From assembly GCA_965248925.1 (NCBI GenBank), contig CBDFLE010000006.1, positions 4,096,001-4,160,000 of the forward strand: a DNA stretch of 64,000 bases. Direction: 5' to 3'. The DNA comes from Candidatus Multivoradales bacterium (GTDB taxonomy: Bacteria > Acidobacteriota > Thermoanaerobaculia > Multivoradales > J023). Position numbers and translations under genes: made by a program. The stretch's first letter is position 1, and the number at the start of each line of letters is the position of its first letter. Below are positions 18,012-38,087 of this stretch, in pieces. The notes below the pieces were generated by a model that saw nothing but the letters and a program-made list of their open reading frames with translations, had not been told where the DNA came from and made no database searches.

Positions 18012-20543
18012 ATGACCCTCAACCACCACATTCTGCCAGCTGCCAACCCGAGCGCCAGGCTCAGCGGCTGGCGTCTATTGGCAGTCTGGGTGTTGATCTG
18101 CGCAACCGCGGCCTGCGGCACGGAAGAGCAGCTCCCCGAGGCCCCTGCCTTGGCCGGCGAGAGCATAGGGGATTTGGCGACCTCGCCAGATATTCGCTGT
18201 GGCCACCATCTCGAGCAAGGTGAGAATCAGTTGGCCCGCGCGGTCTGCGAGGAGGCGGTCGAGCAGGCTAGGCGGGACGCCAACCCGCGGCTCGAAGCCT
18301 CGGCGCTCAGCAAACTCGGCCAAGCCTGGCATGCGTCGGGCGATTTGCAGCGCGCCCTTGAACTCTACGGTCAGTCCCGTGACCTGGCGACCGCGGTTGG
18401 CGCGAGGGATTTGGCGACGGCTGCCGGGCACAACCTGGCGGTGTTGTTCGGTTCGGTAGGGCGCTACGACGATGCGGCTGAGCAGTTGCGGCGAGTAGTT
18501 TCGCAGCATGCTCCCGGTCCGGAACGGGCTGTGAGCACCATGACCTTCGGTCTGGCCCTGGTGGATAGTGGGCGGTTGCAGGAGGGCCTTGCTACCTACC
18601 ACCAAGCGCTCCAGCGACTGCGGGCTAGCGGCCAGACCGCCTACCTGGCGTTGACCCATGATCTGCGCGGCAAGTTGCTACTCCAGCTGGGTCGCCCGGA
18701 GGAGGCTCTAGCGCAGCATCAGCTGGCACTGCGGCTGATCAGAGAGACCGACGCCGTGCCCATCAAGGCCCATATTCACCTCAGCCTGGGCCTGCACTAT
18801 CAGCAGCGCGGCGACTGTGCGGCTGCCCGGCAATCCTTACGCCATGCCCGGCAGCTCTTCACCGAGCAGGGAAACGACGCCGCGGTGGCCGAGGGTGTGC
18901 CGGCAGAGGCACGTTGTCTGGCGTCGCAAGGCCACTGGCAGGAGGCTGAAGGTATATTGAATGAGGCGATGGAGAAGATCGAAGCGATGCGGGCTCGCCT
19001 TGCCCAACCCTCAATGCGGGGCGACTACCTGGGCTCCCGCTTTGGCATTTTTGGTACCGCGGTAGAGCTGGCCATGGAGCGTCATCGCGCCGAGCCTGGG
19101 GCTGGTCACGATGAGCGCGCCTTCGAACTCGCCGAAGGTGCTCGGGCTCGCACCCTGCTCGACCAACGGGTGAGGGTCGAACAGCGTTCGCGCTGGCGTT
19201 CCGACAGTGAGGAGGGGCGCCTGCGTCAGCGGCTCAGTGAGCTGGAAAATCGCCAGCTTCGTGCTCAGCTCGCTGGCCGCGAGCCAGCAGCGGAGTTGAA
19301 TCAGCGGATCGAGCAGCTCTACCAGCGCATCGATCGTCTCACCGGTCCCTTGCCACTCACCACGCCGCCCCTTGACTTGGCGACGATCCAAGCGGAGATC
19401 CTCGAGCCTGGGACCGTCCTCTTGAGCTTTCTATTGGGCAGCGAGCGCAGTCATCTGTGGTGGATCGAGCACAACGATCTGCACAGCTTCGAGCTGCCGG
19501 GTGTCGAGATCATCGATCGCTTGGCGCGCCAGGTACACCGCTCTTTGGCCAGTCCGGCGGATGCTGCCGGCGCTGACCAGCGCGAGCTCGATTTGAGGGA
19601 TCTCAGTGGTTTGTTGCTCGGCCCGGTGGCCGAGCGGTTAGCAGGGCAGCGCCTGCTGGTGGCGGCCGATGGCGCGCTGCATTACTTGCCCTTTGCGGTG
19701 CTTGCCCATCCGCTTACCGGCGAGCCCCTGGTGATGGAGCACGAGGTGGTTCACCTGCCCGCCGCGTCGTTGCTGGTGGCGCAGCGGCGGCGGCTAGTCG
19801 ATCGTTCGCCGGCCAAAGGTTGGTTAGCGGCGATCGGCGATGCAGTCTTCGATGCTGACGATCCCAGGTTGTCGGCAGCCGGTGCTGGCGTTGTGGTGCC
19901 GGGAACCGAGGAAACAGCTACGGCCAGCCGGGCGCTTGCCGGCCTGGGCATTGCGGGCTTGCGGCGATTGCCATTCTCGGGTCGTGAGGTAGAAGCCATT
20001 GGCAAGTCAGGCAAGCGAGAGGATGAGGTACTGCCCGCCACTGGCTTCGCCGCCACCCGCGAGCTGCTGCTCGGCGGCGGTGTGCGAGGTTTTCGCATTA
20101 TCCATCTGGCCACGCACGGGGTGTTCGACACTAGCCATCCTGAACGGTCCGGCTTGGTGTTCTCGCTTTTTGATCGCCAGGGGCGCCCGATCGATGGTTT
20201 GGTGCAGGCTCACGACATCACTGACCTCGACTTGCCCGCCGAGTTGATCGTGCTGAGCGCTTGCCGGACGGCACTTGGCAAAGAAGTACGTGGCGAGGGT
20301 TTGATGGGCCTCACCCAAGCGTTCTTTCAGGCCGGTGCCGCTCGCTTGATAGTCAGTTTCTGGCGCATTCCCGATCGTTCGACCGCCGAGTTGATGGGTC
20401 GTTTCTACCGTCACCTGGGTGAGGGCGGCCTGGCCCCAGGGGCGGCACTCCAGCAGGCCCAACGCTCGATGTATCAGGAGGGGTACGCCCCGCACCAATG
20501 GGCCAGCATGGCCCTGATCGGCGATTGGCGAGCCTTCGAATAG
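18012..20543 (+). CDS. TPR-CHAT (caspase-like) protease, possible lipoprotein
   Basis: Hydrophobic leader ending TAAC; TPR helices; AFELAEGARARTL, ADGALHYLPFAVL, IHLATHG (His), VLSACRT (Cys), GEGLMGL, WASMALIG. Confidence 0.9.
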   Translation: MTLNHHILPAANPSARLSGWRLLAVWVLICATAACGTEEQLPEAPALAGESIGDLATSPDIRCGHHLEQGENQLARAVCEEAVEQARRDANPRLEASALSKLGQAWHASGDLQRALELYGQSRDLATAVGARDLATAAGHNLAVLFGSVGRYDDAAEQLRRVVSQHAPGPERAVSTMTFGLALVDSGRLQEGLATYHQALQRLRASGQTAYLALTHDLRGKLLLQLGRPEEALAQHQLALRLIRETDAVPIKAHIHLSLGLHYQQRGDCAAARQSLRHARQLFTEQGNDAAVAEGVPAEARCLASQGHWQEAEGILNEAMEKIEAMRARLAQPSMRGDYLGSRFGIFGTAVELAMERHRAEPGAGHDERAFELAEGARARTLLDQRVRVEQRSRWRSDSEEGRLRQRLSELENRQLRAQLAGREPAAELNQRIEQLYQRIDRLTGPLPLTTPPLDLATIQAEILEPGTVLLSFLLGSERSHLWWIEHNDLHSFELPGVEIIDRLARQVHRSLASPADAAGADQRELDLRDLSGLLLGPVAERLAGQRLLVAADGALHYLPFAVLAHPLTGEPLVMEHEVVHLPAASLLVAQRRRLVDRSPAKGWLAAIGDAVFDADDPRLSAAGAGVVVPGTEETATASRALAGLGIAGLRRLPFSGREVEAIGKSGKREDEVLPATGFAATRELLLGGGVRGFRIIHLATHGVFDTSHPERSGLVFSLFDRQGRPIDGLVQAHDITDLDLPAELIVLSACRTALGKEVRGEGLMGLTQAFFQAGAARLIVSFWRIPDRSTAELMGRFYRHLGEGGLAPGAALQQAQRSMYQEGYAPHQWASMALIGDWRAFE

Positions 20544-20799
20544 CGGCCCCAAGCCCCCTGGCCACCTACCCGTTCTGGTCGCGCATTCTGCCCAATGCGG
20601 CTCCATCCCGGCGATCGACAATACGTTCCGTCTTGATCCCACCAGACCTCTCAGGGCAATTCCGACGTGTACTCGAGGTTCTTCGGGTACTGGAGTCTGA
20701 GTTCTTGTCTTAATCCCACCAGACCTCTCAGGGCAATTCCGACCAAGCTGCACGGCGTCTGAGGTGCTCCCCATGGTTCTACCACGGCCAATGAGAGTT

Positions 20800-21645
20800 T
20801 TAGCACACTCTCATTTCTTGCTTGCTCATCGCACCAGCAAACTCAGCCGGCGGTAGGTTCCCCAACGAGCTGTGGGGACGTACATGGTTGTAGTCTATTC
20901 GCCAGTGCTCGATCTTGCGGCGAGCGTCTACTAAGTTCGTGAACCAGTGCAGGTTGCGGCACTCATCTCGCAGGCGGCCATTGAAGCTCTCCACAATACA
21001 GTTTTCGATGGGCTTGCCGGGCCGAATAAACAACAAGGTGACGGCGTTCTGGTAGGCCCACTCATCCAAGGCTCTGCTAGTAAACTCCGGGCCGTTGTCC
21101 ACCACAATCCGGTGCGGGTATCCTCGACTCTCGGCAACGCGATCTAGTACTCGGGCCACACGATGACCCGACAGGGACGTATCGACCTCGATAGCTACAC
21201 ACTCTCTCGTTGCCTCGTCCACAACGTTGAGAGCTCGGAAGCAGCGTCCACCTGCCAAAGTGTCGCTGATGAAGTCCATCGACCACTGCTCATTGGCTTG
21301 CTCAGGAACGACTCGCGGCAAGCGGTTTGCCTGCGCTACTCGCTTGCGCTTCCGGCGCCGCACAGCGAGCCCCAGGGCCTTGTAGAGCCGATAGACGCGC
21401 TTATGGTTGATCTGCTTGCCTTCGCGTCGTAGCAGCACATGCAGGCGCCTGTAGCCAAAGCGTGGCCGCTCGCCAGCGAGCTCTAGGAGTCTTTCCACTA
21501 CCTGTTCTTCATCAGGATTCTCTTGGCGGTGATAGCGCACCATCGAGCGACAGGTAGTCGCCAGACGGCACGCTCGGCGCTCACTACAACTGCGGCGCTC
21601 CCGGATCCACTCGACTGCCTCACGCCGGGTCGCGGGCGTCACCAT
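20800..21645 (-). CDS. IS3 transposase OrfB (DDE integrase core)
   Basis: [51 protein letters not shown]. Confidence 0.93.
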
Positions 21646-21905
21646 TTTCTCGACAGGGCTTCTTTGAGCACTTGCTTGTCCAGAGTTAACTCGGCAACAG
21701 CGACCTTTAGCCGCCGATTCTCCTGCTCTAGCTCTCGCAGTCGACGCGCCTCGCTGACCCCCATGCCACCGAACTTCGACTTCCACCGGTAGTAGGTTCC
21801 TTGGGACACGCCGTGTTCCCGGCATACGTCCTTCACTCGCTGCCCCGACTCCACTTGGTCGAGAACTCGGATGATCTGCTCTTCACTAAATCGGCTCTTG
21901 CGCAT
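21639..21905 (-). CDS. IS3 transposase OrfA (HTH and leucine zipper)
   Basis: [46 protein letters not shown]; ends AGAAAATGGTGA overlapping orfB in the -1 frame. Confidence 0.93.
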
Positions 21906-23860
21906 CGGCTCCTCCTCATGCCCAGTCTCTCATTTTGACTGGACCAGAATTCGGGGAGCACCTCACGTCAACACCATCCCTCGAGACGGAACCTGTCTTA
22001 ATCCCACCAGACCTCTCAGGGCAATTCCGACTCGAAAGAGGTGTTCGAAAATGGCCAAGCAAAGCCAGAGTCTTCATCCCACCAGACCTCTCAGGGCAAT
22101 TCCGACGACTTTTTTTTGGGGACACGATTCTGGGTATTCTGTCCCGTCTTCATCCCACCAGACCTCTCAGGGCAATTCCGACAGTGACGAGTGGCGGATG
22201 GTATTTGATTTGTCCGCAACGTCTTCATCCCACCAGACCTCTCAGGGCAATTCCGACTGGCTGACATTCCCATTCCTGACAGGATGGTGATGGAGGGTCT
22301 TCATCCCACCAGACCTCTCAGGGCAATTCCGACGCACGGAAGCAGTGGCCCGTGAGGCACAAGCCTCGCTGTCTTAATCCCACCAGACCTCTCAGGGCAA
22401 TTCCGACCGGACGAGACGGTTTTCGTCGTCACCGAGATCCTGGCTACAGTCTTAATCCCACCAGACCTCTCAGGGCAATTCCGACCGTTCAATTCCAGCG
22501 GCGCGGTTGCAGGCGAGTTCCACCGTCTTAATCCCACCAGACCTCTCAGGGCAATTCCGACAAGGCCGAGTGCTGCCGATCAACGGTGACTCCACCAACG
22601 TGTCTTAATCCCACCAGACCTCTCAGGGCAATTCCGACCACCTCTTTCGGGATGGTGGGATGATCATCACTTCTTGGTTGTCTTAATCCCACCAGACCTC
22701 TCAGGGCAATTCCGACTTGAACGGGATAGCATATATTTCATCCATCTCAGGATCAGTCTTAATCCCACCAGACCTCTCAGGGCAATTCCGACATAACAAT
22801 TGAAGAGTGCAAGCTAAAGTTTAAGGAAGGTCTTAATCCCACCAGACCTCTCAGGGCAATTCCGACCGAGTATGCAACGGGGAACCTTGTTGGAATCAGT
22901 GATGAGGGTCTTAATCCCACCAGACCTCTCAGGGCAATTCCGACAAGGCCGAGTGCTGCCGATCAACGGTGACTCCACCAACGTGTCTTAATCCCACCAG
23001 ACCTCTCAGGGCAATTCCGACCACCTCTTTCGGGATGGTGGGATGATCATCACTTCTTGGTTGTCTTAATCCCACCAGACCTCTCAGGGCAATTCCGACT
23101 TGAACGGGATAGCATATATTTCATCCATCTCAGGATCAGTCTTAATCCCACCAGACCTCTCAGGGCAATTCCGACATAACAATTGAAGAGTGCAAGCTAA
23201 AGTTTAAGGAAGGTCTTAATCCCACCAGACCTCTCAGGGCAATTCCGACCGAGTATGCAACGGGGAACCTTGTTGGAATCAGTGATGAGGGTCTTAATCC
23301 CACCAGACCTCTCAGGGCAATTCCGACTCTATTTGGAGGCCCTCTATTTGGAGGCCCTCGAGAAAATCGTCTTAATCCCACCAGACCTCTCAGGGCAATT
23401 CCGACTGTTTTGGGGGGTTTTACGCAACTTGGCAGGATTGGAGAGTCTTAATCCCACCAGACCTCTCAGGGCAATTCCGACAGCGTAGACGCAGGAGGCG
23501 GCAAGTATGTGGGTGGCCCGTCTTAATCCCACCAGACCTCTCAGGGCAATTCCGACCTTCCTTATGTTCCAACAGTCGGTCGGGTCAGTCAACCGTCTTC
23601 ATCCCACCAGACCTCTCAGGGCAATTCCGACGCACGGAAGCAGTGGCCCGTGAGGCACAAGCCTCGCTGTCTTAATCCCACCAGACCTCTCAGGGCAATT
23701 CCGACTTTCGATACTTAAATTCAGCGCCAAACTGGCATTTAAGCGTCTTAATCCCACCAGACCTCTCAGGGCAATTCCGACGTAAAGGTTCTCCTCGATC
23801 CTACTCCACTTACGTCTTTGTGTGTCTTAATCCCACCAGACCTCTCAGGGCAATTCCGAC

Positions 23861-24406: not shown

Positions 24407-24587
24407 AGGGCTTCCTCCCTGTGTGGGATGGCTCGGTGAGTATTCGAAGTATTCACCGGGCCGTTTGGTGAAAGGTCTGGTGGGACCTACTTTCATCTGT
24501 TGATCAATCATGAGTCGATCGACGAAAGCGACTTCATATCTAGTTGGAGTATATGAGATGTCGGTCATTCTTGTCAAGCCATTCCGG

Positions 24588-26805: not shown

Positions 26806-26968
26806 CAAGGGCTCCAGCAGCCGGCGAAGTTCCAAATCGGCCGGCTCTGATTGGGTAGACCCCATCTCTCGGCCCGAGGGTGGAGAAGAATTCCGAAATA
26901 ATCTGCCGGATTCGACGCCCTGCTCCAACTTTGGTTCCGGCTTCGCTTATTTGGTCCATAATCTGTGC

Positions 26969-28969
26969 ATGGACTACCAAAATCTGTGGATCAACTTGCA
27001 GTCGCGGGGAGAGGAAGAGATCGTTGTCGAGCATATGGTGAAGCACCCGAGCGGGGACCGGCCGCTGCGGCTCGCGTTTGCCGTGGGTGATATTCAGCGC
27101 CGCCTCGCCGAGCTCGAGAAGTTGATCATCACCTGCGCGTCACAGAACCCTGATCCGAAGGTGGCCCTTGATACCGCGGAGGCCACCAAGCTGGCTAGCG
27201 CGAAAGCCAAGCTCGCTGAGTTGCAGGAAGAGCTGGGTTGCAGCTTGTATGAGGCGATCTTCTACGAACACCATGCGGGGATCGTCGCCGACCTCTGGCA
27301 CAAGCACAAGAGCCTCCGCCTGCGGCTGACCATCGATCCCAGCGATAGCAGGGTCGCGCCGCTACTCAGCTTGCCGTGGGAGCTGATGCGAGCAAGGGAG
27401 CAAGGCGATGCCTATGCTCGACTCCGTCAGACTCCCATGGTGAGGTACGGGATAGTTCCCCGCCAAGTTGTCGAGAGTCTTGCCGGGGAGGTCGGGGAGC
27501 TGCCCGAGTCTCCCGAGCTACGGGTCCTCTTTGCCGCTGCTTCTCCCGACCAGCCCGAGCGGGCGATCGACATCGACGGTTTCCGAGAGTGGCTGGAGCA
27601 AGGTATGGCGAGCGCTCAGAAGCTCGCGCCCAAGGTGCTTTCGCAGACCACAATCCAGTCTCTGGATGCGGCGTTGCGGGACTCAGAACCTCACATCTTG
27701 GTGTTGCTCAGTCACGGAGTGTTCGATCCGCAAGACGGCATCGGCTATTTGGGTCTAAAGGATCAGGATCAGGATATGGCCTCTGTGACCGACTCCGCAT
27801 TTGCCGAGATTCTCAAGGGCAAGGCCTCCCTGCGTCTGGTAGTTCTGGCGACCTGCTCCGGTGGGGCCTTGCGTCGGCGGGGTGATCAGCATCCCTATGC
27901 CAATGTTGCGGCGGCATTGTTGCTAGCCGGAATGCCCGCGGTCATTGCGATGCAGCACCCGATATCTGAGGAGGCGGTGCGGACGTTCTGCCGCGCCATG
28001 TTCGCCGATCTGGCCAAGAACTTGCCGGTAGAGGCCGCTGTTGCGGCGGGCCGCATGGCGATCTACCAGCACCCGACACACAGCCTGGAGTGGGCCACGC
28101 CGGTTCTGTTTAGCCGCGCGGACGATGGCCGGTTGGTCGCCTTGCCGGAAGAGCCGGAAGAGCAGGAACTCGGATTGGACTACGGGCAGCGGTTGCCGCT
28201 GCGGGCCGCTATTCGCAGCATCGGCCGCGGCTGGGGAGTCGAAATCGAGCAGCAGGGGCTGGCGGACCGATGGCTCAAGCTTGAAGATCACTTCCGGCCC
28301 GATCGTTTTAGGGTTCTCAAGAACCCGGATGCCTGGAATACGGTGCTATTTCCCGCGGTTGCCGACTTTCTCGAACAGGTGAGGTCAGAAGGCCGGCCCG
28401 TAGAGCTTATCTTGCCCTGTTGCGGCAGCCTCGCGTTCGCTGCCGGCTATTCAATGGAAAGATGCAACGTGCCGGTATCGGTGGTTCAGCGGGCCCGCTC
28501 CAAACGCTTCTTTCTCTGGCCCGATCGGGGACCAGAGGATGGCAAGGGTTGCGAAGGTCCGGATTGGCGGGTCGAAGAGCGGGAACTCGGCGAGCAGGGA
28601 GGCCTCGCTGTGGCACTGAGCGTGTCGACGCCAATCCACAAACATCTGAATAGCTTTATTGACCACCAACGCTTCCCAGCAGTCCGCCGGGTAGTTTGGT
28701 TCGAGCCCGAGGGCGGAGCCCACCCAACGGCGATCTTCGGGGCGGCACATGCGCGCAGACTAGTTCAGGACTTGATGCTCTGGCTGCTCAAGAACGTGAC
28801 GGTCGAAGAAGAGAAGGCGGGCCTGCACATCTTCTTTGCGGCCCCCAACAGCCTGATGTTCTATCTCGGCCAGCAGGCGGCGAGCCTGTCCCGAGTACAG
28901 ATCTGGGAACTACCATTCGGCATGGGTAGACCCGGAGAGTATGATCCGGCGATCCGGCTGCCCCTCTGA
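26969..28969 (+). CDS. CHAT-SAVED fusion: putative cyclic-oligonucleotide-activated caspase-like protease
   Basis: CHAT: LPWELM, LRVLFAAASP, LSHGVFD (His), LVVLATCSG (Cys), AVIAMQ, EWATPVLF; SAVED: SLAFAAGY, LAVALSVS, LHIFFAAPNSLMFYLGQ, YDPAIRL. Confidence 0.88.
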   Translation: MDYQNLWINLQSRGEEEIVVEHMVKHPSGDRPLRLAFAVGDIQRRLAELEKLIITCASQNPDPKVALDTAEATKLASAKAKLAELQEELGCSLYEAIFYEHHAGIVADLWHKHKSLRLRLTIDPSDSRVAPLLSLPWELMRAREQGDAYARLRQTPMVRYGIVPRQVVESLAGEVGELPESPELRVLFAAASPDQPERAIDIDGFREWLEQGMASAQKLAPKVLSQTTIQSLDAALRDSEPHILVLLSHGVFDPQDGIGYLGLKDQDQDMASVTDSAFAEILKGKASLRLVVLATCSGGALRRRGDQHPYANVAAALLLAGMPAVIAMQHPISEEAVRTFCRAMFADLAKNLPVEAAVAAGRMAIYQHPTHSLEWATPVLFSRADDGRLVALPEEPEEQELGLDYGQRLPLRAAIRSIGRGWGVEIEQQGLADRWLKLEDHFRPDRFRVLKNPDAWNTVLFPAVADFLEQVRSEGRPVELILPCCGSLAFAAGYSMERCNVPVSVVQRARSKRFFLWPDRGPEDGKGCEGPDWRVEERELGEQGGLAVALSVSTPIHKHLNSFIDHQRFPAVRRVVWFEPEGGAHPTAIFGAAHARRLVQDLMLWLLKNVTVEEEKAGLHIFFAAPNSLMFYLGQQAASLSRVQIWELPFGMGRPGEYDPAIRLPL

Positions 28970-29014
28970 GGCTGAGTCGCAAGAGAAGGGGCAGCCGGGC
29001 TCTGCTCAATCGGC

Positions 29015-29176
29015 CTACGGCGTGTCATCCGCCGGCTGCTTGGTTTTCTCTTCTGCCGGCTGTGCGTCGTGGTCCTGTGACATTTTGCCGGTCGCCTTGC
29101 TCTTCTTGCCAGGTACATCCATGCCGAGAATCCAAGCTCCCTTCTGGCTCATTGTTTGTTCTGGGTCATCGCACAT
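29015..29176 (-). CDS. 53-aa small ORF at the end of the cmr operon
   Basis: AGGAG RBS 7 nt before ATG; MCDDPEQTMSQKGAWILGMDVPGKKSKATGKMSQDHDAQPAEEKTKQPADDTP; shorter than the ORFs listed in the track. Confidence 0.55.
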   Translation of the reverse strand: MCDDPEQTMSQKGAWILGMDVPGKKSKATGKMSQDHDAQPAEEKTKQPADDTP

Positions 29177-29226
29177 CGCGAACTCCTACGGTTTGTTGTC
29201 AGTGGTTACGTCTCCATGCTGCGCTA

Positions 29227-29976
29227 CTATCTTCCCCCCGTGTGGTCGCTCATGAATTGAGGCACTCCCTCATGGGCGTCGCTAGGTTCAAGAATCAAGC
29301 CCTTTCGCCCTCCTTTTTCGCCTTTGCCAACGACGTAGATTGATGAGACTGCACATTCTTCGGCAGCTTGGAAGGCGCCGATCGACATGGGCACCGTGCC
29401 GCCTGTGGTGTCGACAAAAATGCGGTGGCGGTGAATGCCAAGACGCTTGAAACGGTCAACGAAGTGCAGTGCCATTCGCCGGCTGTCTTCTGGATTGTGC
29501 GGATCATCAAGCCAGAAACCGCCGCGGTCGATCTCGGCAACTGGCGGGTAGATCTCTACCCGATCGGCGAAGCTGCGAGCCAACTTGGCGGCGATCTTCT
29601 GAGTTTGTTCAGTGTATAGAAATGCCACGCGCTCGGGCTGTAGGTGACGCAAGATCCACTCCGGCTGCTCGCGGCGGCTGACCGGGACCACCATCGCATC
29701 GACCTGCTGTTCGAGGATTGCAAGCCGAACGCCTGCGTTGGCGAACTCACGGCGTCGCACCCAGCGCCGCACTAGACGGCGCACCGAGCCGCGTTCGATC
29801 AAGGCGAGTAGAAACCCCGCCGCACCTAGACAACTCCAGGCGAAGCTGAGCAGGATTCCGGCATGATCGAAGGCATCAATCCAACCCGGCGAAAAAAGCT
29901 TGGAGAAGAGGACCGCCGCAGTGGCAATTGCCAGGAAGAAAGCAGCGGTCAGTAGGATTGTGCGTAGCTTGGGCAT
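29227..29976 (-). CDS. Two-TM plus CARF domain effector (Cam1-like)
   Basis: Two N-terminal hydrophobic helices; CARF-type VVPVS, VAFLYT and IFVDTTGGTVPMSIGAF motifs; directly after cmr6. Confidence 0.85.
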   Translation of the reverse strand: MPKLRTILLTAAFFLAIATAAVLFSKLFSPGWIDAFDHAGILLSFAWSCLGAAGFLLALIERGSVRRLVRRWVRRREFANAGVRLAILEQQVDAMVVPVSRREQPEWILRHLQPERVAFLYTEQTQKIAAKLARSFADRVEIYPPVAEIDRGGFWLDDPHNPEDSRRMALHFVDRFKRLGIHRHRIFVDTTGGTVPMSIGAFQAAEECAVSSIYVVGKGEKGGRKGLILEPSDAHEGVPQFMSDHTGGR

Positions 29977-29990: not shown

Positions 29991-31130
29991 TCAGGGTTTT
30001 TCACCCAACAGGCGGATGATCTTGAGAGTCCGCATATGCGGCTTGTCGTTTCGCGCTTTGCCCAGAAGGCGCGGGCGCCAGTGATCTTGCGCCAGCATCA
30101 GTTCCTTTGCCTTGCGGGCGGCGCGCAGTAGCTCGTCGCCCTGCCAGGTGTTCTTGTAAAGCCCCTCGACAATCAACTCGTAGTCGGGCTTCTTGCGGCG
30201 AATCGCTTTTTCGGCGAGCTTGGCGAGGGAGCGGTCGAAAGGATCGAGGGCGGCATATCCGGCGTGGCGTTCCTGGGTGTCGAGCTGTCGTTCGAGCCTG
30301 GAGAGGATTCTCTTGTCTCCGGGAATCAGCTGGCCATAACCTGCCGCGGTCTTGGCGCCAGCTCCCAGCAGGTCAAGGGCCTGGCGCATCTCTGCAAAAG
30401 CCGCCGGCACCTCGGCACGGGCTGTCTCCGTGCGGGCCGCTATCTGGACGAGGAATGATGGCTGCTTGGCCACCAGGAACTTCACCGGGTTGGGACTGTG
30501 AAAATCCCCAGGCAGAAGCTCGGCGGAGTCGGCCGAATCGATCTCCTCGATTTGATCACCGCGCTCGTACCACTTGCCCATGTGCGGTGTCATCACATCT
30601 ACTACCAGCGATGGTGCGGTGATCGGTAGTGCATCGAAGAAGATCAGATCGCCGGCTCGATCGGGCTTGCCGGGTTGCTCGGGCTCACCCAACCAGCGGC
30701 GACGGCGCTCTTGGCATAGCTCAGCGGTTTCTCCGGACCATTCCTCGAGCCACCCCCGCAGTATGCCCTTGACCGCCGTGCCGGTCAGATAGGGGACTCC
30801 CAGCGTAGGGTGCCAGGCAAAACCATTCTCCAGCGGGTGCGGCAGACCGAGGCCGGATGCGAAGTGCCAGCTGGCCTGAAGCTCACGGCTCTCGGCCCCG
30901 AGCGAACGGCCCAGACGCAGCAGGCGTAGGGCCGTCGCTTCGGGTAGCTCCGTGTCGCTACAGGTGGCCTGTGCCAAGTCTCTAAGCCAGTGATTCTTGG
31001 TGTCGGGATCGTCGAGAGTCCAACCTTCTTCATAGCGAAAGAAGCGGCTGTGCCAGAGGCCCAGATGGGCGCCGGCCGGTGGTCTGTTGGGAGCGCCATG
31101 GCCACGGTATAGGGGCAGCTCAGTCATCAC
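29991..31130 (-). CDS. cmr6: Type III-B RAMP Cmr6
   Basis: GLGLPHPLENGFAWHPTLGVPYLTGTAVKG, FFDALP, DVMTPH, PNPVKFL, GAGAKTAAGYG. Confidence 0.96.
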   Translation of the reverse strand: MMTELPLYRGHGAPNRPPAGAHLGLWHSRFFRYEEGWTLDDPDTKNHWLRDLAQATCSDTELPEATALRLLRLGRSLGAESRELQASWHFASGLGLPHPLENGFAWHPTLGVPYLTGTAVKGILRGWLEEWSGETAELCQERRRRWLGEPEQPGKPDRAGDLIFFDALPITAPSLVVDVMTPHMGKWYERGDQIEEIDSADSAELLPGDFHSPNPVKFLVAKQPSFLVQIAARTETARAEVPAAFAEMRQALDLLGAGAKTAAGYGQLIPGDKRILSRLERQLDTQERHAGYAALDPFDRSLAKLAEKAIRRKKPDYELIVEGLYKNTWQGDELLRAARKAKELMLAQDHWRPRLLGKARNDKPHMRTLKIIRLLGEKP

Positions 31131-31548
31131 TGGCCTCCTCGCTCTCTGACTGGTTGTCCTCGTCCAAGAAGGCTGTTGCGAATTTGCGCACCCACTCCAT
31201 CAGGGCCATGGCCTCGGTTTGGGCGACCCGATAGTGAAACATCTTGGTCTTGGTGATGCCGGTCAGCAGATCGTCGTATTCCTCCAGAGGCTGGCCGGCC
31301 TGTGTCATCCACTCCGAGACAATGTTGTACAGCTCGCCGTGACTGCCGCCCTTCATTTTGCTGAAAGCAGCTGCCTGGCCGAGCCCATTCATGCGAATCA
31401 TGGCTGGCAACTCTTGGGCGTAGGCGCGAAACTCCTTGGCCTTGAGTTCGTTCGCGGCGATCTTCGTATTGACGGTGTTGATGATCCGTTTGAGGGCGAA
31501 CGCTGCGCGTCGCTGTTCGATGGTTTGCGGTACGGCTGCGGGGTCCAT
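31120..31548 (-). CDS. cmr5: Type III-B small subunit Cmr5
   Basis: TIEQRRAAFA, LPAMIRMNGLGQAAAF, YRVAQTEAMALMEWVRKFA. Confidence 0.93.
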   Translation of the reverse strand: MDPAAVPQTIEQRRAAFALKRIINTVNTKIAANELKAKEFRAYAQELPAMIRMNGLGQAAAFSKMKGGSHGELYNIVSEWMTQAGQPLEEYDDLLTGITKTKMFHYRVAQTEAMALMEWVRKFATAFLDEDNQSESEEASDD

Positions 31549-31550
31549 GC

Positions 31551-32429
31551 TCAGCCCTCCACGGTGGGGAGTTGAACTCGGCACCAGCCCATGCCAACGG
31601 TTTCGTTACCTCCGAGCTGTAGGTAAGGCTGCTCGCCGAAGAGCTGAGCTAGGGTTTCACTCAGCACCTGAGCCGAACTCTTCTTCAGATCGCTACGCGA
31701 GGCCCACGCGGCCAGCGCTACGTAGAGCAGAGTGTCTGGCGGCAGGGTTTCCTCATACCAGAGGGCGCCGGATTCCACCGTCTTCGTCTTGTTGTCGATC
31801 CGCACATGCGCTGCCACAGGAACCGCGAAGCGGGCCAGATATCCGAACAGGTCGTCGTCGACGACGGCCAGCTGCTCGCTCAAGCGATCTCCAGCTTGGG
31901 GATCGGGGAACAGGTCGGCGAGCTCCCCTATCACGCTAGTGAGATCCCCGGTGACGACCTCCAGGCGAAACTCCTCGAGGAAGAGCAGGCTGTCGCTACT
32001 ACCAGCTGGCAGTATTGCCTTGTCAACGGCTGGCAGGGGTAGAGCTTCGGTGGCGGGACTGCCGCCGAGCCGTTGCCGATCTTCGCGCAGGCGGCGCAGC
32101 AAGGCCGGGCAGGTGACCCATTTGAAGTGACCGGTGAGTGAGCGAACCGGCAGCAGCACGAGCCGAGCGTCGCCGACGATCAGGGCGCCAGCGTGGTCGG
32201 ATGCGTTGTCGGTGTCAGGACCGAAGATCGACCAGCGCAGGTCTTTGGGCATCTGACGATCTTCGGCGCGGGCGCGGAGCGCTCCTTTGACCGCGCTGCC
32301 GTAGACACACGGCCAGTCGGTGTGTGCCTCGCGCTGGATGGGCAAGTCAATAGGTCCGGCGCTGTGGCCGGCGCCGGCGTGGATCGAGGTTTCGGCCAGC
32401 AGGCCGAGGATGGCGGTGGGTTGTTTCAC
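31551..32429 (-). CDS. cmr4: Type III-B RAMP Cmr4 (target RNase)
   Basis: ETSIHAGAG, IDLPIQRE (catalytic Asp), GSAVKGALR, DARLVLLPVRS, ALWYEETLP, LQLGGNETVGMG. Confidence 0.96.
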   Translation of the reverse strand: MKQPTAILGLLAETSIHAGAGHSAGPIDLPIQREAHTDWPCVYGSAVKGALRARAEDRQMPKDLRWSIFGPDTDNASDHAGALIVGDARLVLLPVRSLTGHFKWVTCPALLRRLREDRQRLGGSPATEALPLPAVDKAILPAGSSDSLLFLEEFRLEVVTGDLTSVIGELADLFPDPQAGDRLSEQLAVVDDDLFGYLARFAVPVAAHVRIDNKTKTVESGALWYEETLPPDTLLYVALAAWASRSDLKKSSAQVLSETLAQLFGEQPYLQLGGNETVGMGWCRVQLPTVEG

Positions 32430-32470
32430 GATTGCGGACTCCTTGATTGAGTGATCGGATTGGTTGGGGC

Positions 32471-33676
32471 TCAGTCGGCCCACAAGCCCACGGCTAACAG
32501 ACCGCGGCCGAGTTGGGTGTCATAGCCAATCGATGTGCCGTGGAGGATGGCGATGGCTTCGTCGATGGCGCCCTCGTCGACTGTGCATAGCCAGACACTG
32601 CCGGCGGGCACCAGGCTGCGGACTGGGTGCGATCGATGATTGGCGAGATCCCAGCCGCCTTCGCGAATGGGTTTGCCGAGGATTGCTGAGTGCAAGGTCA
32701 GAGGGACCTGCAGAGCGATGGACTCACCTCGCCGGGGTTCGGCGTCGCAGCGGGTGTTCCAGATCTCGGGATCGAAGCCGGGAGCTGGATTCAGTCCCTC
32801 CGGCCGCCAACGGCAGCGACCGAAGTCGGCATGGGTCAGCAGGCACAGTGCCAGCCAGCGTTGACCTGGCTCTGGCCGAGGAGCGTGGGGGAGCTTGGCC
32901 GTTTGGTCTCTGACACTCACCATCGCCATTCGGCCTTCGCCGCCGAATCGCACCGGTGATCGCGGTTGGTGGAGTCGGGGGTTAACCTTGTCAGCCCGCA
33001 ACTCGACGTCTATTTCTACTGCCAGCTGGTGGTTAGGTCGCAGGTGGCGAGTCTGATAGAGCAGCCCTTCTTTAACGGTGCGCAGTGCATTCTCACGGGC
33101 GATCCCGAGCCGTGGCTCTTCGGGTACCAGTGGTGCGAGCAGGACGACATCGTCGCTGGCAGGTAGCTCGCCTGCCAGCGTTTGTCGCAGGCCCTGAAGG
33201 GTTAGCCAAGCACGGTCGAGAGGCTTGGCATGGTCTCCAGTAGGTAGTTGCGGCAGGCGAACTCTGCCCAAGTCACACTTCTCTGCTGAACCCAAAGCGA
33301 GACGGACGATTCCCTGCTTGCCCTCGCCGCGTGACATCAGAAAGGCCGGAGCGGGGAAGAGGCGTTCGGTGGTGCCGCTGTCGTTGCGCCGGGTGAGCCA
33401 AGGGCCAGCGAAGTGCAGCGAACCGAGGTCGTCGCCAAAACCTATCCAGCCTTGCAGGCTGCCGCCGGATGGCCCGGCCTGGTCCTTGGCGACGCGGAAG
33501 TCATTCCAATTAACCCCGACGCTCTCGCCCATCAGGAATCGGGTGGCTCCGGCAAGGGTCCGAGCCGGTGGTGGGAAGACGCTGCCGAGCTCTAAGCCGC
33601 CAACGACACCGTGGGGACGGGATTCGCGGAAGAACCAGGTGTCGTGGGCTTCGTAGCGCCAGGTCTCGACGGTCAT
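32471..33676 (-). CDS. cmr3: Type III-B Cmr3 (Cas5 family)
   Basis: DTWFFRESRP, FPPPARTLAGA, EPRLGI, RFGGEGR, GGWDL, PAGSVW, LGRG. Confidence 0.95.
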   Translation of the reverse strand: MTVETWRYEAHDTWFFRESRPHGVVGGLELGSVFPPPARTLAGATRFLMGESVGVNWNDFRVAKDQAGPSGGSLQGWIGFGDDLGSLHFAGPWLTRRNDSGTTERLFPAPAFLMSRGEGKQGIVRLALGSAEKCDLGRVRLPQLPTGDHAKPLDRAWLTLQGLRQTLAGELPASDDVVLLAPLVPEEPRLGIARENALRTVKEGLLYQTRHLRPNHQLAVEIDVELRADKVNPRLHQPRSPVRFGGEGRMAMVSVRDQTAKLPHAPRPEPGQRWLALCLLTHADFGRCRWRPEGLNPAPGFDPEIWNTRCDAEPRRGESIALQVPLTLHSAILGKPIREGGWDLANHRSHPVRSLVPAGSVWLCTVDEGAIDEAIAILHGTSIGYDTQLGRGLLAVGLWAD

Positions 33677-35670
33677 GCCTCTACCCCCTTGCGGGCCAGA
33701 AAGCGCACTAGCAGCGCGCCGTCGGCCTGGAGTTGATCGGTGATCTCGAAGGTAACGTCATCCTTTGGTGGGTCATTGTTCACATGCCTGATTTGCGGGC
33801 GGCATTGCCGCAGCAAACGCTCCACGGTCGGCTGTACCTGATCCGTCGTCGGCCTCTTTTCGCCATGGACTCCGGAACTGATGTATTCGGCTGTCATCAG
33901 TTTGAGGGCCTGTTCAGAAGTGAGATGCTCTTGATCCGTGTGGCGTGGATTGAGCAGTGCGAAGAGTTCACGGATGCGATAGAAGAAACGGCTTGAGAAA
34001 ACACTCTCTTCCGGTTGCTTAGGTCTACCAGACTCATTTCCCGAGGGACTCCGTAGTTCGTCTACCAATGCTTCCAGCACCAGCCGTTGATCCTTGCCTT
34101 CGACCGGCTCGTCGAGAGCCGCTTCCCAGGGCATCGCCCAGGCCATGAGCTGACCGCCAGGTGCCCAGACCCGCACTGCCAGAGAATCGCGACCACAGCC
34201 ATCCTTGGCGACGTTGTCCAGCAGGTGGTGGGAGTTGCTCAGCACTCTGCTCAGCGGCACCCGAAAGTGGGCGTATTCGATGGCGCCCGAGAGGGTGGAA
34301 CGTACAGGTTTGCCGACTGCGTCGACCTTGCTGGCGAAGCATGCTTCGTAGTGATCTCGCAGCTTACGAGCGCAGGGCATCGCTTGGTCCAGGGACAACA
34401 TTGCCAGGACATCATCGCCCCCGGCGTAGATCAGAAACCCGCTTTGGGCGTCGACGATTTTCTTGACCTGACCAGTGAACTTCCCCAATGCCTTGCTGAT
34501 GGGTTCTTGCCGGTCGACAATCGACATCTGCTTGCCGAGCGCGTCACCGTCCATTCGCAGGATCGAGTAGTAGGGAGATGGATGGGCGATGTCTTTTGCC
34601 CTGGCTTGATCACGCAGCACTTCGAGGGCTTCGCGGGCGTGTTTCTTGGTCTCCTCAGGAACGTCTTTGAAGAGGTTCGGGTTGAGCAGGGTTTCCTTGA
34701 AGAATAGCGAGCCATCGAGTGAGCGGAAGAAGTGGGCGGGGGCGCCGCTCGTCTTTCCGGCTTGGCGCAGGCACTCGAGATCGATCTTCCATTCGCCGTA
34801 GTTACCGGTGACTTCCCGGGCAGCTAGGGTGAAGGTTTCGACCGCCGAGGGATCAATTTTCTGGCTGACGATCTGTTCGATCCAGGGCACCGCCGCCAAG
34901 TAGGCCACCGATGGGACGGCGGTGGGGAGTTTCCAGCCTCGCAGCATCCAGCCTCCCGGCATTTCAGCCTTGAGGCATTTGAAGTGACGAGCGAACCGCC
35001 GCTTGACAAAGGCCATGGCACAGAGCTGCTCGCCCTCACGAAAGTCGGTGGTGTTGCAGCTCTGCGCGATACTCTTCCAGAACTCCTTGCGGCGGTCGCG
35101 GTCGTCTTTACCTTCGCCCTGGATCCCCGAGAGTTCTTGCCAGCCGTCCATCACCAGGCATTTGGCCCCTGGTTCGTCGGGCGCCAGGTGGTTACGCCAG
35201 TTCTTGCGCCGGTCGATCAGGTCGCTGTGCTGATCATCAGGTGCTACCGCCCAGTAGATCTCCCAGAAACTCTTGACTTGACGATTCCAGATTCTACGAC
35301 TTTCGGATTCCTCACCTAGCGCTGCGAGATCTCTCTTCCAAAGTTCCTCTGCAAGTTGGTGCCAGGCTTCGCGTACAGTTTCCGCGATGCGCTTTGCAAC
35401 GAATCCTTCTTCTATCTTTGCTTTGAATCGATTCGGTACGGACCCTTGGGTAGGTGAGAACTTCGCCTTGTTTCCCTGCGTCAGGCACTTGATGAATTCC
35501 GGGTCTGGGGCGGGGAAGGTGATCCTGCCATCCTGCTGTTGCACAGCTTTCATCGCGACCGCAGATAGAAACGAGAGGATGAATGACCCAGCCCAAAAAT
35601 CGCGAGTCCTTCTGGCTTGCTCGACGAAACTCTGAACTGGTCCGATGGTGAAGTGAAAGTGCTGGCTCAC
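33673..35670 (-). CDS. cas10: Cas10/Cmr2 lacking an HD domain, intact cyclase Palm motif
   Basis: Starts at FHFTIGPVQSFVEQARRTRDFWAGSFILS; YYSILRMDGDALGK; IYAGGDDVL; only 665 aa. Confidence 0.96.
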   Translation of the reverse strand: MSQHFHFTIGPVQSFVEQARRTRDFWAGSFILSFLSAVAMKAVQQQDGRITFPAPDPEFIKCLTQGNKAKFSPTQGSVPNRFKAKIEEGFVAKRIAETVREAWHQLAEELWKRDLAALGEESESRRIWNRQVKSFWEIYWAVAPDDQHSDLIDRRKNWRNHLAPDEPGAKCLVMDGWQELSGIQGEGKDDRDRRKEFWKSIAQSCNTTDFREGEQLCAMAFVKRRFARHFKCLKAEMPGGWMLRGWKLPTAVPSVAYLAAVPWIEQIVSQKIDPSAVETFTLAAREVTGNYGEWKIDLECLRQAGKTSGAPAHFFRSLDGSLFFKETLLNPNLFKDVPEETKKHAREALEVLRDQARAKDIAHPSPYYSILRMDGDALGKQMSIVDRQEPISKALGKFTGQVKKIVDAQSGFLIYAGGDDVLAMLSLDQAMPCARKLRDHYEACFASKVDAVGKPVRSTLSGAIEYAHFRVPLSRVLSNSHHLLDNVAKDGCGRDSLAVRVWAPGGQLMAWAMPWEAALDEPVEGKDQRLVLEALVDELRSPSGNESGRPKQPEESVFSSRFFYRIRELFALLNPRHTDQEHLTSEQALKLMTAEYISSGVHGEKRPTTDQVQPTVERLLRQCRPQIRHVNNDPPKDDVTFEITDQLQADGALLVRFLARKGVEA

Positions 35671-36857
35671 GGCAGTAGGTCCTTTCGTTCCGAAAAGCGA
35701 TCGAGAAAGTCTGTGATGTGCTTGAAGTTGGGTTGAGGGACTAGGTCGGGAGTCCTTCCAGTGATCGAAATCTTGTCGCCGGATGGTAGAAAGATGGCTG
35801 GTAGAAGGGTGTGAAATGCAGCGTGACTTCCGTTGGGAAACTGATGAATGTGCAGCAAGAGAGGAGAAGCACGGCGAGCGCGCCGTTCGCCTGTGGGCTC
35901 CACTTCTAGCCTTCGTCTCGCTATTGGTATGTGTCCTGGCGAGGAGAAGAAGTAGTTGTGGGGCAAGCCGAATACGATACGGCCGGGTAGCTGCTCGGCA
36001 ACGCCTCCCATCATCGCTTTCTGCATTTCATTGTGATCATCCGGGAAGTTCTGTTCCGCTCTTTGGCCCAGGACCTTGTGGTATGAGTCTTGCGGCCGAC
36101 GAAGTCCCCAACTACGATAGAACATCATTTTTCTTCCGACACCCTCGAGTAGTTGCCAGCCATTCGCCGTTGAGGACTTGGTCGAGCAGTGGACCTTGCT
36201 CATCTTGGAAAAGGCGGTTAGCGGAGGTAGATCGCTGCCGAGGTCGGGCAGATTGTCGTTGAGTTGTAATTTCAGCTCATCAAGGGTTCTCGGAATCTTT
36301 ATCGCAGCTCCTTCTAATGACTCCAGTACGACACTGCCCATTCCATGGCGTGAGCGACTGCCGAGCCCACCCAGCATTCCCCACAGCCATAGGGCTCTTG
36401 AGATGCTGGCGATCGATGCGTCATCTTTATTCCGCAAGCGAATACGGACTGTGAAAGAGGTGTCGGGCTTGAACGCTTTGCGTAGGCAGCGATCTCTGAA
36501 GTGGAACAGGCCCATTCCGAGGAGATACCCTTGGCCGGGTCCCGCGTCAGGCTTGTAGGTTGAGCCTCCTGTTGCGATCGACGTTCTGATCAACATGCGC
36601 TGCCCGCCTTGTTCTTCGCCACCTTCAATCTTGCTAGCCGCTCCAAACAGCCTTGTTTCCCGCTGATGCAGCTCGCACAGCGCCGCGGCTGGGTCCGCAT
36701 GCTCAACACAAACCCGCGGCCACTCCGAAGCCCGCCACCAAAACCGCAACGCTCCACGAATCGAAGGTGGTCGCAAGCTGCTCGGCTTCTGATCAGCGTC
36801 GCCGAGGAACATCGGCGTGGTTATCCGATAAGTCGCTGAGATCTCATGCCCTCTCAT
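35667..36857 (-). CDS. cmr1: Type III-B RAMP Cmr1
   Basis: ITTPMFLG, LRPPSIRGALRFWWRA, LFG, GGLGSRSRHGMG, FGLP, RRASPL. Confidence 0.95.
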   Translation of the reverse strand: MRGHEISATYRITTPMFLGDADQKPSSLRPPSIRGALRFWWRASEWPRVCVEHADPAAALCELHQRETRLFGAASKIEGGEEQGGQRMLIRTSIATGGSTYKPDAGPGQGYLLGMGLFHFRDRCLRKAFKPDTSFTVRIRLRNKDDASIASISRALWLWGMLGGLGSRSRHGMGSVVLESLEGAAIKIPRTLDELKLQLNDNLPDLGSDLPPLTAFSKMSKVHCSTKSSTANGWQLLEGVGRKMMFYRSWGLRRPQDSYHKVLGQRAEQNFPDDHNEMQKAMMGGVAEQLPGRIVFGLPHNYFFSSPGHIPIARRRLEVEPTGERRARRASPLLLHIHQFPNGSHAAFHTLLPAIFLPSGDKISITGRTPDLVPQPNFKHITDFLDRFSERKDLLP

Positions 36858-37897: not shown

Positions 37898-38087
37898 GCG
37901 ATCGGTTTCCTCTCATGCCATGGGTGGCGCCCGGCCCGGCGGCCGGCGCCGGCCCAGGTCGATGGGCGAGCGGCGTCTCTTTTGAGGTAGACCCGATCGA
38001 GGGCGGGAGGGGTGGGGAGAACTTTCGCGATCGAGCTGCGAAGAATCAGGGCGATGTCGAGGCAGAGAAACGCTGAGGGGGGTCGAA

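Follow-up and report, generated by a model that had tools for sequence, protein, structure and literature searches.

A single forward-strand gene inside an otherwise reverse-strand type III-B CRISPR-Cas locus raises the question of what switches its product on and what that product cleaves. The gene lies in the window, the 64,000-nucleotide stretch analysed here (contig CBDFLE010000006.1 of a Candidatus Multivoradales bacterium, positions 4,096,001 to 4,160,000), and its product joins a CHAT protease domain at the N-terminus to a SAVED sensor domain at the C-terminus (CHAT-SAVED). Taken together, the results described below suggest that this protein is probably a protease effector of the adjoining type III-B system that is gated by cyclic oligoadenylate (cOA) and tied to a sigma-factor switch resembling DdvS/DdvA of Myxococcus xanthus.

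The CHAT-SAVED protease and its type III-B setting

The features on which this reading depends are as follows (here and below, L-numbers are labels of stretches around relatives of the family, and aa stands for amino acids).

26969..28969, + strand: CHAT-SAVED gene, 666 aa, cytoplasmic by sequence reading
27281..28108, + strand: CHAT (caspase-fold) protease domain, residues 105-380, with His249 and Cys296 (Pfam, alignment, Foldseek)
28187..28963, + strand: SAVED sensor domain, residues about 407-665 (PADLOC, sequence match to PDB Cap4)
29991..37897, - strand: type III-B effector operon cas6-cmr1-cas10-cmr3-cmr4-cmr5-cmr6
36854-37897, - strand: cas6 (Pfam)
35667-36857, - strand: cmr1 (Pfam)
33673-35670, - strand: cas10/cmr2 (Pfam, NCBIfam Cas10/Cmr2; GGDD, no HD)
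32471-33676, - strand: cmr3 (Pfam)
31551-32483, - strand: cmr4 (Pfam)
about 31120-31584, - strand: cmr5 (clusters with the Pfam-confirmed Cmr5 of L016, L020 and L028)
29991-31130, - strand: cmr6 (Pfam)
26530-26805, - strand: cas2, divergent from CHAT-SAVED (Pfam)
25574-26533, - strand: stand-alone reverse transcriptase (RT) gene (Pfam, NCBIfam, PADLOC RT)
24588-25577, - strand: cas1 (Pfam)

The open reading frame (ORF) extends from 26951 to 28969 on the + strand, and translation from the ATG at 26969 yields the 666-aa product; this start is sound because the N-termini of the relatives share M-x-Y-x-D/N, in agreement with it. Pfam placed CHAT on residues 105-380 (E 8.8e-23), with SAVED following on 484-663 (E 1.1e-16), the NCBIfam SAVED match covered 445-665 (E 4.9e-26), and the PADLOC models of Cap4-type SAVED effectors spanned 407-665 (E 1e-41). 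An earlier sequence-only reading of this DNA had proposed an N-terminal CHAT with an intact LSHG/LATC pair and a C-terminal SAVED, and both domains were thus confirmed; His249 (LSHG) and Cys296 (LATC) are invariant in 75/75 aligned full-length family members, and W456, G493, H620, P626 and E647 are the invariant SAVED positions of the same alignment. Structure prediction and Foldseek, which that reading had put forward as a check, were also run. The AlphaFold2 model, built on the 75-member alignment, was a confident one, with a mean predicted local distance difference test (pLDDT) of 86.8 and a predicted template modelling score (pTM) of 0.69; the C-terminal half matched Cap4 (7yib, E 1.7e-18), Cap5 and a viral SAVED protein, and the N-terminal half matched Csx29 (7zoq, E 1.4e-9), separase and the SAVED-CHAT filament 8tl0 (E 3.3e-9). 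The SAVED half also matched Cap4 of the PDB by sequence (7yia, E 3.4e-16), and its nearest relative by both sequence and structure is Cap4 of Enterobacter cloacae. Hydropathy analysis of the protein revealed no signal peptide, and the sole hydrophobic window (309-332) falls within the CHAT fold.

The order of the two domains is the reverse of that in the characterised SAVED-CHAT, as the sequence-only reading had stated. In the accessible part of the preprint on that protein the catalytic residues are H375 and C422, i.e. its CHAT stands at the C-terminus, and residues 287-357 of 8tl0_A (496 aa) align to residues 185-251 of the window protein; the PADLOC 'SAVED_CHAT' model (498 positions) matches the CHAT domain here with its positions 104-286, that is, with its N-terminal half. 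The reversed order alone had been taken to imply a different substrate, and this step does not hold, since the same order is already described in M. xanthus, where a type III-B system, a CD-NTase and DdvS with DdvA adjoin it (PMC11506125), and recurs in many other proteins. A word-indexed search gave 37 matches, with three further proteins carrying both CHAT and SAVED, and 652 proteins passed E<=1e-30 when the search was made exhaustively with HMMER; in 100 of the 149 other representatives listed, the best aligned stretch reaches query residue 640 or beyond, i.e. through the end of SAVED. As judged from these alignments, about 100 sequence clusters share the CHAT-SAVED order, which is not new. 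Almost none of the members of 10 representative clusters has been named, one being a 'SAVED domain-containing protein [Thermoanaerobaculia bacterium]'. The CHAT domain is also common, at 36-41% identity, to proteins in which its partner is NACHT, FGE-sulfatase, TPR or WD40.

Every other called gene between 24059 and 37897 is on the - strand, so that CHAT-SAVED is, as claimed, the only + strand gene inside the locus; its claimed divergence from cas2 over about 160 bp also stands, the gap measuring 163 bp when the Met of '...LMLVLISYDIS' (26805) is taken as the start of cas2 and 40 bp when its longest ORF is used. The Cmr set is complete: Cmr1-6 and Cas6 are present, and the cyclase motif of Cas10 is intact. 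The window Cas10 keeps the GGDD motif (IYAGGDDVLAM) and has no N-terminal HD domain; therefore, the system should signal, without a Cas10 HD nuclease. GGDD or GGDE is likewise kept in 12 of the 13 Cas10s that adjoin CHAT-SAVED family members.

The company of the family was analysed in 28 non-redundant loci holding a full or nearly full relative: 12 from 80 genome-contig stretches (the other 68 share CHAT only), two from the window's own genome, seven from 18 metagenome stretches (10 being too short and one a duplicate) and seven from related genomes. The duplicates L103 (on the contig of L016) and L124 (the same stretch as L058) were excluded from the counts, and the short metagenome loci L098-L100, L102 and L106-L111 stand outside the tallies. 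A search with Pfam and for Cas10 found type III genes in 20/28 loci. They are of two flavours, Cmr and one with a divergent Cas10, and closely related CHAT-SAVED proteases adjoin either flavour; divergent or adjacent placement beside cas10 or cas6 recurs across many loci. TIR-SAVED genes co-occur in L027 and L095. A full-length family member is present in 10 of 40 related genomes.

Because the SAVED half is nearest to CBASS (cyclic oligonucleotide-based antiphage signalling system) Cap4 models, the protein could alternatively be a CBASS effector gone astray into the CRISPR locus, responding to a CD-NTase encoded elsewhere and not to Cas10. A paralog in the window's own genome, 28% identical to the window protein, indeed adjoins a CD-NTase and an E2 gene, and the M. 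xanthus gene has been read as a CBASS effector (PMC11506125). Nevertheless, a CD-NTase was found in only 1 of the 27 Pfam-scanned loci, namely that of the paralog, against the 20/28 with type III genes, and Pfam gave no SMODS match among the window genes. The sequence-only reading had allowed for homologs that occur only in CBASS operons; the family goes with type III systems instead. In addition, the GC content of the gene (0.617, and 0.729 at third codon positions) is inside the range of the neighbouring cas genes, and the placement beside cas10 or cas6 is recurrent. A CBASS leftover is thus highly improbable.

The sigma, anti-sigma and TPR-CHAT module

When the ORFs of 14 loci were clustered all-against-all, one non-cas companion set recurred, consisting of a sigma factor of the extracytoplasmic function (ECF) type, an anti-sigma factor and a TPR + CHAT protein of about 1,000-1,100 aa. 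A uniform tblastn search over the 28 loci (E<=1e-6) detected the sigma factor in 17, the anti-sigma factor in 16 and TPR-CHAT in 18; at least one part of the module was present in 20 loci and at least two parts in 17. In 10 loci the sigma gene begins 42-352 bp past the end of SAVED on the same strand, the gene order being CHAT-SAVED, sigma, anti-sigma, TPR-CHAT, and in L102 and L106, outside the tallies, the sigma gene also comes right after CHAT-SAVED. In the separate anti-sigma factors an anti-sigma domain stands at the N-terminus (L013, L014 and L016 show H-x3-C-x2-C in it), accompanied by a single transmembrane (TM) helix and a periplasmic part of about 140 aa. Hydrophobic residues and then a Cys open the TPR-CHATs of the window, L011, L013, L014, L016, L028 and L062; as read by eye from these N-termini, the proteins look exported and lipoprotein-like.

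All three parts are present in the window, 7.6-10.6 kb from CHAT-SAVED.

38873..39517, + strand: ECF sigma factor (Pfam, NCBIfam)
39540..40298, + strand: single-pass membrane anti-sigma factor, TM 116-134 (homology, hydropathy)
18012..20543, + strand: TPR-CHAT protein, 843 aa, lipoprotein-like N-terminus (Pfam CHAT, E 5.6e-59, and TPR)

The window sigma factor is 32-38% identical to those encoded after CHAT-SAVED in other loci, and the window TPR-CHAT, whose gene ends 87 bp before the CRISPR array, is 32-36% identical to the TPR-CHATs that adjoin CHAT-SAVED elsewhere. The anti-sigma factor gave a weak NCBIfam anti-sigma match below the cut-off; it is a full-length homolog of that of L062 (32% over 251 aa, E 1e-22) and the best own-genome match of the anti-sigma factors of both L062 and L028.

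As a control, 30 Cas10 palm matches were collected in 41 related genomes, and the 20 stretches without a known CHAT-SAVED were examined. One of them, L141, did hold CHAT-SAVED and the full module in the canonical order. The module was found in 1 of 19 type III loci without CHAT-SAVED (L130; L131 gave a weak CHAT match only) and in 13 of 20 with it, so that, for sets that were sampled differently and relatives that are not independent, the module goes with the CHAT-SAVED protease and not with type III systems as such. In addition, the identity matrices of sigma and SAVED correlate across 17 loci (Mantel r 0.86, reached by 0/2000 permutations).

The regulatory role that this module has been shown to have in M. 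xanthus was left unconsidered by the sequence-only reading. According to the accessible part of PMC6061681, loss of DdvA raises the expression of MXAN_7291 and MXAN_7290, directly upstream of ddvS, 572- and 285-fold, respectively, and DdvS promoters (GTAA-n16-CGT) precede MXAN_7291/MXAN_7290, ddvS, a further operon and the cmr genes; PMC11506125 reads the two induced genes as those of a CD-NTase and of a CHAT-SAVED effector. A readable promoter motif of the ECF type was also found in one clade of the relatives. A de novo dyad search of 13 upstream regions returned (CAAC,16,GTGT) in six, the maximum over 30 shuffles being 3-4, and the pattern TCCAAC-N14-16-YGTGT had 15 matches in 7 of the 19 loci scanned (L028, L062, L095, L101, L104, L105 and L106), compared with eight in the whole 8-Mb genome of the window.

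TCCAAC-N14-16-YGTGT sites: L028 9918-9971; L062 8731, 9764 and 16637; L095 7695, 8736 and 15421
TCCAAC-N14-16-YGTGT sites: L101 7751 and 8772; L104 5770 and 10178; L105 455 and 2523; L106 207

In the annotated loci most copies lie just upstream of cas6, CHAT-SAVED or cas10, and those of L028 lie divergently between CHAT-SAVED and cas10. The window has a promoter-like motif of its own, in two exact copies.

26855..26883, - strand: CCACCC-N15-GGGTCTAC, in the cas2/CHAT-SAVED gap, pointing towards cas2
37987..38015, - strand: second exact copy, upstream of cas6-cmr

At up to two mismatches this motif had four matches, a number reached by 0/100 shuffles. Its extended form, (TTCTCYCC)CCACCC-N15-GGGTCTAC(YCAATCAG), stands upstream of both cas2-RT-cas1 and cas6-cmr. 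Further copies are at C6:310227, C6:314860 and C6:3898202 of the same genome; one-mismatch copies lie upstream of a 980-aa ORF at a second CRISPR region and at a remnant locus (both described below). A resemblance between the motif and the CRISPR repeat was weighed and set aside, as just one of its copies has an 8-nt word in common with that repeat. Upstream of the window sigma gene only the left half of the motif (GAATTCCCCACCC) is present, the DdvS pattern GTAA-n16-CGT was not seen by eye in the 230 nt preceding that gene, and no convincing promoter was found for the window CHAT-SAVED gene itself. Most likely, the sigma module controls the transcription of CHAT-SAVED and the cas operons, a role that experiments have shown in M. 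xanthus and that the promoter motif suggests for one clade of the relatives; in the window it would do the same.

Activation, substrate and comparison with known systems

From the anatomy of the locus and by analogy with characterised SAVED effectors, we infer four steps of activation. Cmr would bind target RNA, Cas10 (GGDD, no HD) would then make cOA, the cOA would bind the C-terminal SAVED domain, and SAVED-driven oligomerisation would turn on the His249/Cys296 site of the N-terminal CHAT. The protease belongs to a conserved cassette of CHAT-SAVED, ECF sigma factor, membrane anti-sigma factor and a TPR-CHAT lipoprotein that looks exported, in which the DdvS/DdvA arrangement of M. xanthus is present in split form.

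As to the ligand, Cap4 receptors bind cyclic trinucleotides. Because Cap4 receptors are the nearest relatives of its SAVED half, our guess is cyclic triadenylate (cA3) rather than cyclic tetraadenylate (cA4) for CHAT-SAVED, and cA4 for the neighbouring gene product, which is a predicted second cOA effector of the locus.

29227..29976, - strand: Cam1-like gene, 249 aa, convergent with CHAT-SAVED (PDB 8t64, PADLOC, hydropathy)

This protein has TM segments at 3-31 and 39-61 by hydropathy, followed by a CARF domain, and matches Cam1 of the PDB (8t64, E 8.9e-16) and the PADLOC model CARF8--CARF_TM (E 7.8e-30); the convergent pair recurs in L096 (2981-3730) and L100 (1018-1668). SAVED-CHAT is activated by cA3 and Cam1 by cA4 (PMC11229360).

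The cytoplasmic part of the anti-sigma factor is tentatively the leading specific candidate for the substrate. The idea rests on the analogy with CalpL, Craspase and PCaspase and on the tight operon linkage: in the accessible accounts, CalpL cuts the anti-sigma factor CalpT, Craspase cuts Csx30 and thereby frees a sigma factor, and PCaspase cuts a sigma factor. A complex prediction for CHAT-SAVED with anti-sigma residues 1-115 gave a score of 0.02 against a mark of 0.32, which speaks neither for nor against it. Broad cleavage of host proteins is a comparably tentative option, and another specific target encoded elsewhere is only slightly less likely. The sequence-only reading had named four local candidates. 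The anti-sigma factor at 39540 and the TPR-CHAT at 18012 were borne out as conserved companions, module parts being present in 20/28 loci; TPR-CHAT is an unlikely substrate, since it looks exported and hence would be in another compartment than the cytoplasmic protease. The 53-aa ORF (29015-29176, - strand) gave no Pfam match and has no homolog in the related loci or in the rest of the genome, and the sole 115-aa ORF found between 14000 and 44000 (16128-16475, - strand) falls inside a larger gene; both candidates were therefore discarded.

TPR-CHAT could instead be the next protease of a cascade, cleaved and activated by CHAT-SAVED as PCaspase is by SAVED-CHAT in the published precedent, as far as the accessible account goes. 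It is present in 18/28 loci and beside both CHAT-SAVED copies of the window's genome. Nevertheless, since the TPR-CHATs of seven loci begin like lipoproteins and the homologous domain of M. xanthus is periplasmic by cryo-electron microscopy (PMC11506125), the two proteases should occupy different compartments, and a cascade is very unlikely. A PCaspase itself is absent from the window, as had been claimed: none of the eight Peptidase_C14 matches of the genome falls within it, and among the 27 Pfam-scanned loci only L058 and L127 have a caspase domain near the gene.

A number of observations weigh against an effector of type III systems tied to a sigma switch. Within the stretches covered, no cas genes were found in 8/28 loci (L013, L018, L094, L104, L105, L123, L125 and L127), of which L013, L018, L094 and L105 sit on contigs of at most 11.3 kb. 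Within the same stretches no module part was found in 8/28 loci (L012, L017, L020, L021, L027, L096, L123 and L126), L012 and L126 ending at contig ends; therefore, the protease can exist without the sigma module, and the proposed substrate role of the anti-sigma factor is weakened. In the window the cassette is dispersed to both flanks of the CRISPR-Cas block, with sigma 9.9 kb and TPR-CHAT 7.6 kb away, and the window TPR-CHAT ranks only 7th and 9th in its own genome for two cassette TPR-CHAT queries. CHAT matches number 31 in that genome, and sigma/anti-sigma/TPR-CHAT sets occur there at least six more times. The motif TCCAAC-N14-16-YGTGT had 0 matches in the 12 other loci scanned, the window included, where a weak look-alike lies upstream of the gene. 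The co-inheritance of sigma and SAVED may simply track the species tree, as the compared loci are not independent. The window CHAT-SAVED stands in the tree on a long branch with no supported sister, and no relative more than 37% identical to it was found across 40 related genomes. Finally, our literature search did not find the exact term 'CHAT-SAVED' or a biochemical study of any protein with N-terminal CHAT and C-terminal SAVED, the M. xanthus protein being described only.

Some of these points favour a self-contained abortive-infection protease that would be activated by cOA and would degrade many host proteins or a conserved target elsewhere, the module setting only its expression. The loci in which the protease stands without any module part fit such a protease, as does the result that no other small neighbour is conserved among the 14 clustered loci; small ORFs do occur between TPR-CHAT and CHAT-SAVED in L011, L126 and L128, and they are of low complexity and not mutually homologous. 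The variety of partners of the family's CHAT domain (NACHT, FGE-sulfatase, TPR, WD40) points in the same direction, and regulation by the sigma factor is what the M. xanthus work demonstrated. A caspase-like protease activated by a TIR-made signal reportedly degrades proteins indiscriminately, and such a bacterial immune protease is in print, in an account accessible in part. In contrast, among type III loci the module goes with those that have CHAT-SAVED (13/20, against 1/19 without it), the position of the protease gene directly before sigma on the same strand in 10 loci is tighter than would be expected of a mere regulon member, and all three characterised CRISPR-linked proteases end, in the accessible accounts, at sigma factors. 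We therefore consider abortive infection of this kind a credible alternative that falls short of being the favoured one, and the cOA-gated effector tied to the sigma switch remains our preferred reading.

A more speculative form of the preferred reading, which we regard as unlikely on present evidence, is that of a two-input sigma switch converging on one membrane anti-sigma factor, with CHAT-SAVED as its cytoplasmic arm. The exported TPR-CHAT lipoprotein would attack the anti-sigma factor from the periplasm when phage is sensed at the envelope, and cOA-activated CHAT-SAVED would attack it from the cytoplasm upon detection of phage RNA by the type III system; at the paralogous locus, firing of the CD-NTase would activate the cytoplasmic arm. 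Either cut would free the same ECF sigma factor and raise the expression of CRISPR-Cas, adaptation genes and effectors.

Comparison with known systems places the window protein as an uncharacterised variant within a known class of immune effector. The closest arrangement is that of M. xanthus MXAN_7290, a likeness by description: its CHAT, too, is N-terminal and its SAVED C-terminal, and its gene lies directly upstream of an ECF sigma factor and an anti-sigma factor linked to TPR-CHAT, near a type III-B Cmr system (PMC11506125). In the accessible part of PMC6061681 its expression is sigma-dependent, and the gene order MXAN_7290, ddvS, ddvA is that of the related cassettes. However, the M. xanthus protein has a CD-NTase as its partner and is interpreted as an effector of CBASS, whereas the window has no CD-NTase; moreover, DdvA is an anti-sigma factor fused to TPR-CHAT, whereas in the window the two are separate genes and TPR-CHAT is lipoprotein-like. 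SAVED-CHAT/PCaspase of Haliangium ochraceum (Steens et al.; 8tl0) also combines SAVED and CHAT beside a type III-B system with a sigma factor nearby, but its domain order is opposite, the window gene has no PCaspase, PCi or PCk adjoining, and the window SAVED half is nearer to Cap4 than to this SAVED-CHAT. Because sequence similarity to 8tl0 is weak (E 0.021) and limited to part of CHAT, the two proteins may be independent fusions. CalpL-CalpT-CalpS, in its accessible description, likewise joins a cOA-sensing SAVED domain to a protease in one protein and is tied genetically to an anti-sigma/ECF sigma pair, but the protease is Lon and not CHAT, and the window anti-sigma factor differs from CalpT in that it sits in the membrane, has a periplasmic domain and is accompanied by an additional TPR-CHAT. 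Craspase (Cas7-11, the TPR-CHAT Csx29, Csx30, Csx31 and RpoE) resembles the window system as a type III CHAT-fold protease whose output is sigma release; however, it is activated by direct RNA-guided contact and not by cOA, it lacks a SAVED domain, and the window TPR-CHAT is a separate protein that looks exported. Cap4, the endonuclease-SAVED receptor of CBASS, is the best match of the SAVED half and has its effector domain N-terminal to SAVED as well, but that effector is a nuclease in a CD-NTase operon, whereas the window effector is a protease in a Cas10 context.

Other features of the locus and genome, and significance

The CHAT-SAVED paralog of the same genome is 647 aa long and is flanked by the CD-NTase and E2 genes, a type III set and a sigma/anti-sigma/TPR-CHAT set. 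It lies in a second defence island, C6:288000-321000 (L011, L092), which contains sigma, anti-sigma, a 1157-aa TPR-CHAT, CD-NTase, E2, a divergent Cas10 with GGDD, RAMP genes, cas2, arrays with a different, 35-nt repeat, and the 980-aa ORF, the scanned C-terminal part of which matches Cas1; this island is a CBASS/type III hybrid much like that of M. xanthus. At C6:3898202-3898414 (L093, about 9200-9415) a remnant survives, made up of the motif of the cas2/CHAT-SAVED gap and codons 1-34 of CHAT-SAVED (68% identity), and no CRISPR array was found in the 18 kb around it. The genome has three copies of a 797-aa ORF, probably a mobile element, all with the same arrangement of internal ORFs (L092 7395-9788 and 12531-14924; L093 1788-4181), two of the copies being near the second CRISPR region. 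The further sigma/anti-sigma/TPR-CHAT sets include C6:4968957-4973453, C6:3370142-3374630, C6:5041287-5045646, C6:1218260-1222211 and C5:1912164-1916143, and several adjoin caspase (Peptidase_C14) genes (C6:5046882, C6:1217023, C5:1920317). The module is thus a general signalling device of this genome, beyond the defence loci.

The CRISPR array of the window lies beyond cas1.

20630..23860, probably - strand: CRISPR array, 27 repeats of 37 nt

This strand is inferred from the reverse complement of the repeat, the end of which, ATTAAGAC, resembles a type III 5' tag. The array is split by a transposase gene of the IS3 family (20800-21825, Pfam), beyond which two repeats remain. Inside the array, at 22525-23327, a 383-bp repeat-spacer block is tandemly repeated in 2.1 copies with 100% identity, and repeat variants are present, with GTCTTCATCC in six repeats and GTCTTGATCC in one. 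A gene for a Uma2-family putative endonuclease (38088-38693, - strand) is located between cas6 and the sigma gene and matches the PADLOC candidate system PDC-S03 (E 5.9e-35); another Uma2 gene is near the CHAT-SAVED of L017. Two more ORFs of the locus, one of 183 aa (24059-24610, - strand) overlapping the cas1 stop by 23 nt and one of 104 aa (28941-29255, + strand), had no Pfam or NCBIfam match and no homolog in the related loci or in the rest of the genome.

About 4 kb upstream of TPR-CHAT, at 7851-13715 on the + strand, the window encodes a 1954-aa repeat-rich surface protein that ends in Peptidase_C25. The DdvS regulon of M. xanthus includes a putative C25-type peptidase (PMC11506125), and the parallel may be a coincidence. 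At 52746-57044 there are tandem units of about 1259 bp, each with an RTX-like 173-aa ORF; their opposite strand carries ECF sigma pieces at 54606-54932 and a full-length ECF sigma gene at 57124-57705, adjoining a Ser/Thr kinase-TPR gene (57728-60397).

To what is already in print, where the main text of the ECF re-classification paper does not mention CHAT, the present analysis adds that the CHAT-SAVED family is mainly type III-associated in Acidobacteriota, that it forms a cassette with a split DdvS/DdvA-like switch, that in one clade of relatives the sigma switch carries a readable regulon, and that one genome holds both a CBASS-linked and a CRISPR-linked paralog. The characterised CRISPR-linked proteases Craspase, CalpL and SAVED-CHAT all feed sigma factors of mostly unknown role; the CHAT-SAVED family would represent a fourth wiring, probably of independent origin, whose sigma regulon is partly readable from the DNA and for which the homologous sigma/anti-sigma pair of M. 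xanthus already has genetics and structure. The two own-genome paralogs offer a natural pair for understanding how one effector family serves both CBASS and CRISPR signalling. If the two-input switch were true, interference would strengthen its own machinery in a feed-forward loop, and the CRISPR-linked proteases that end at a sigma factor would gain a fourth independent example. Should the anti-sigma factor be the substrate, cOA signalling would be linked to an amplification of CRISPR immunity at the level of transcription; otherwise, the family would still stand as a caspase-like effector, gated by cOA and so far uncharacterised, that is frequent in Acidobacteriota.

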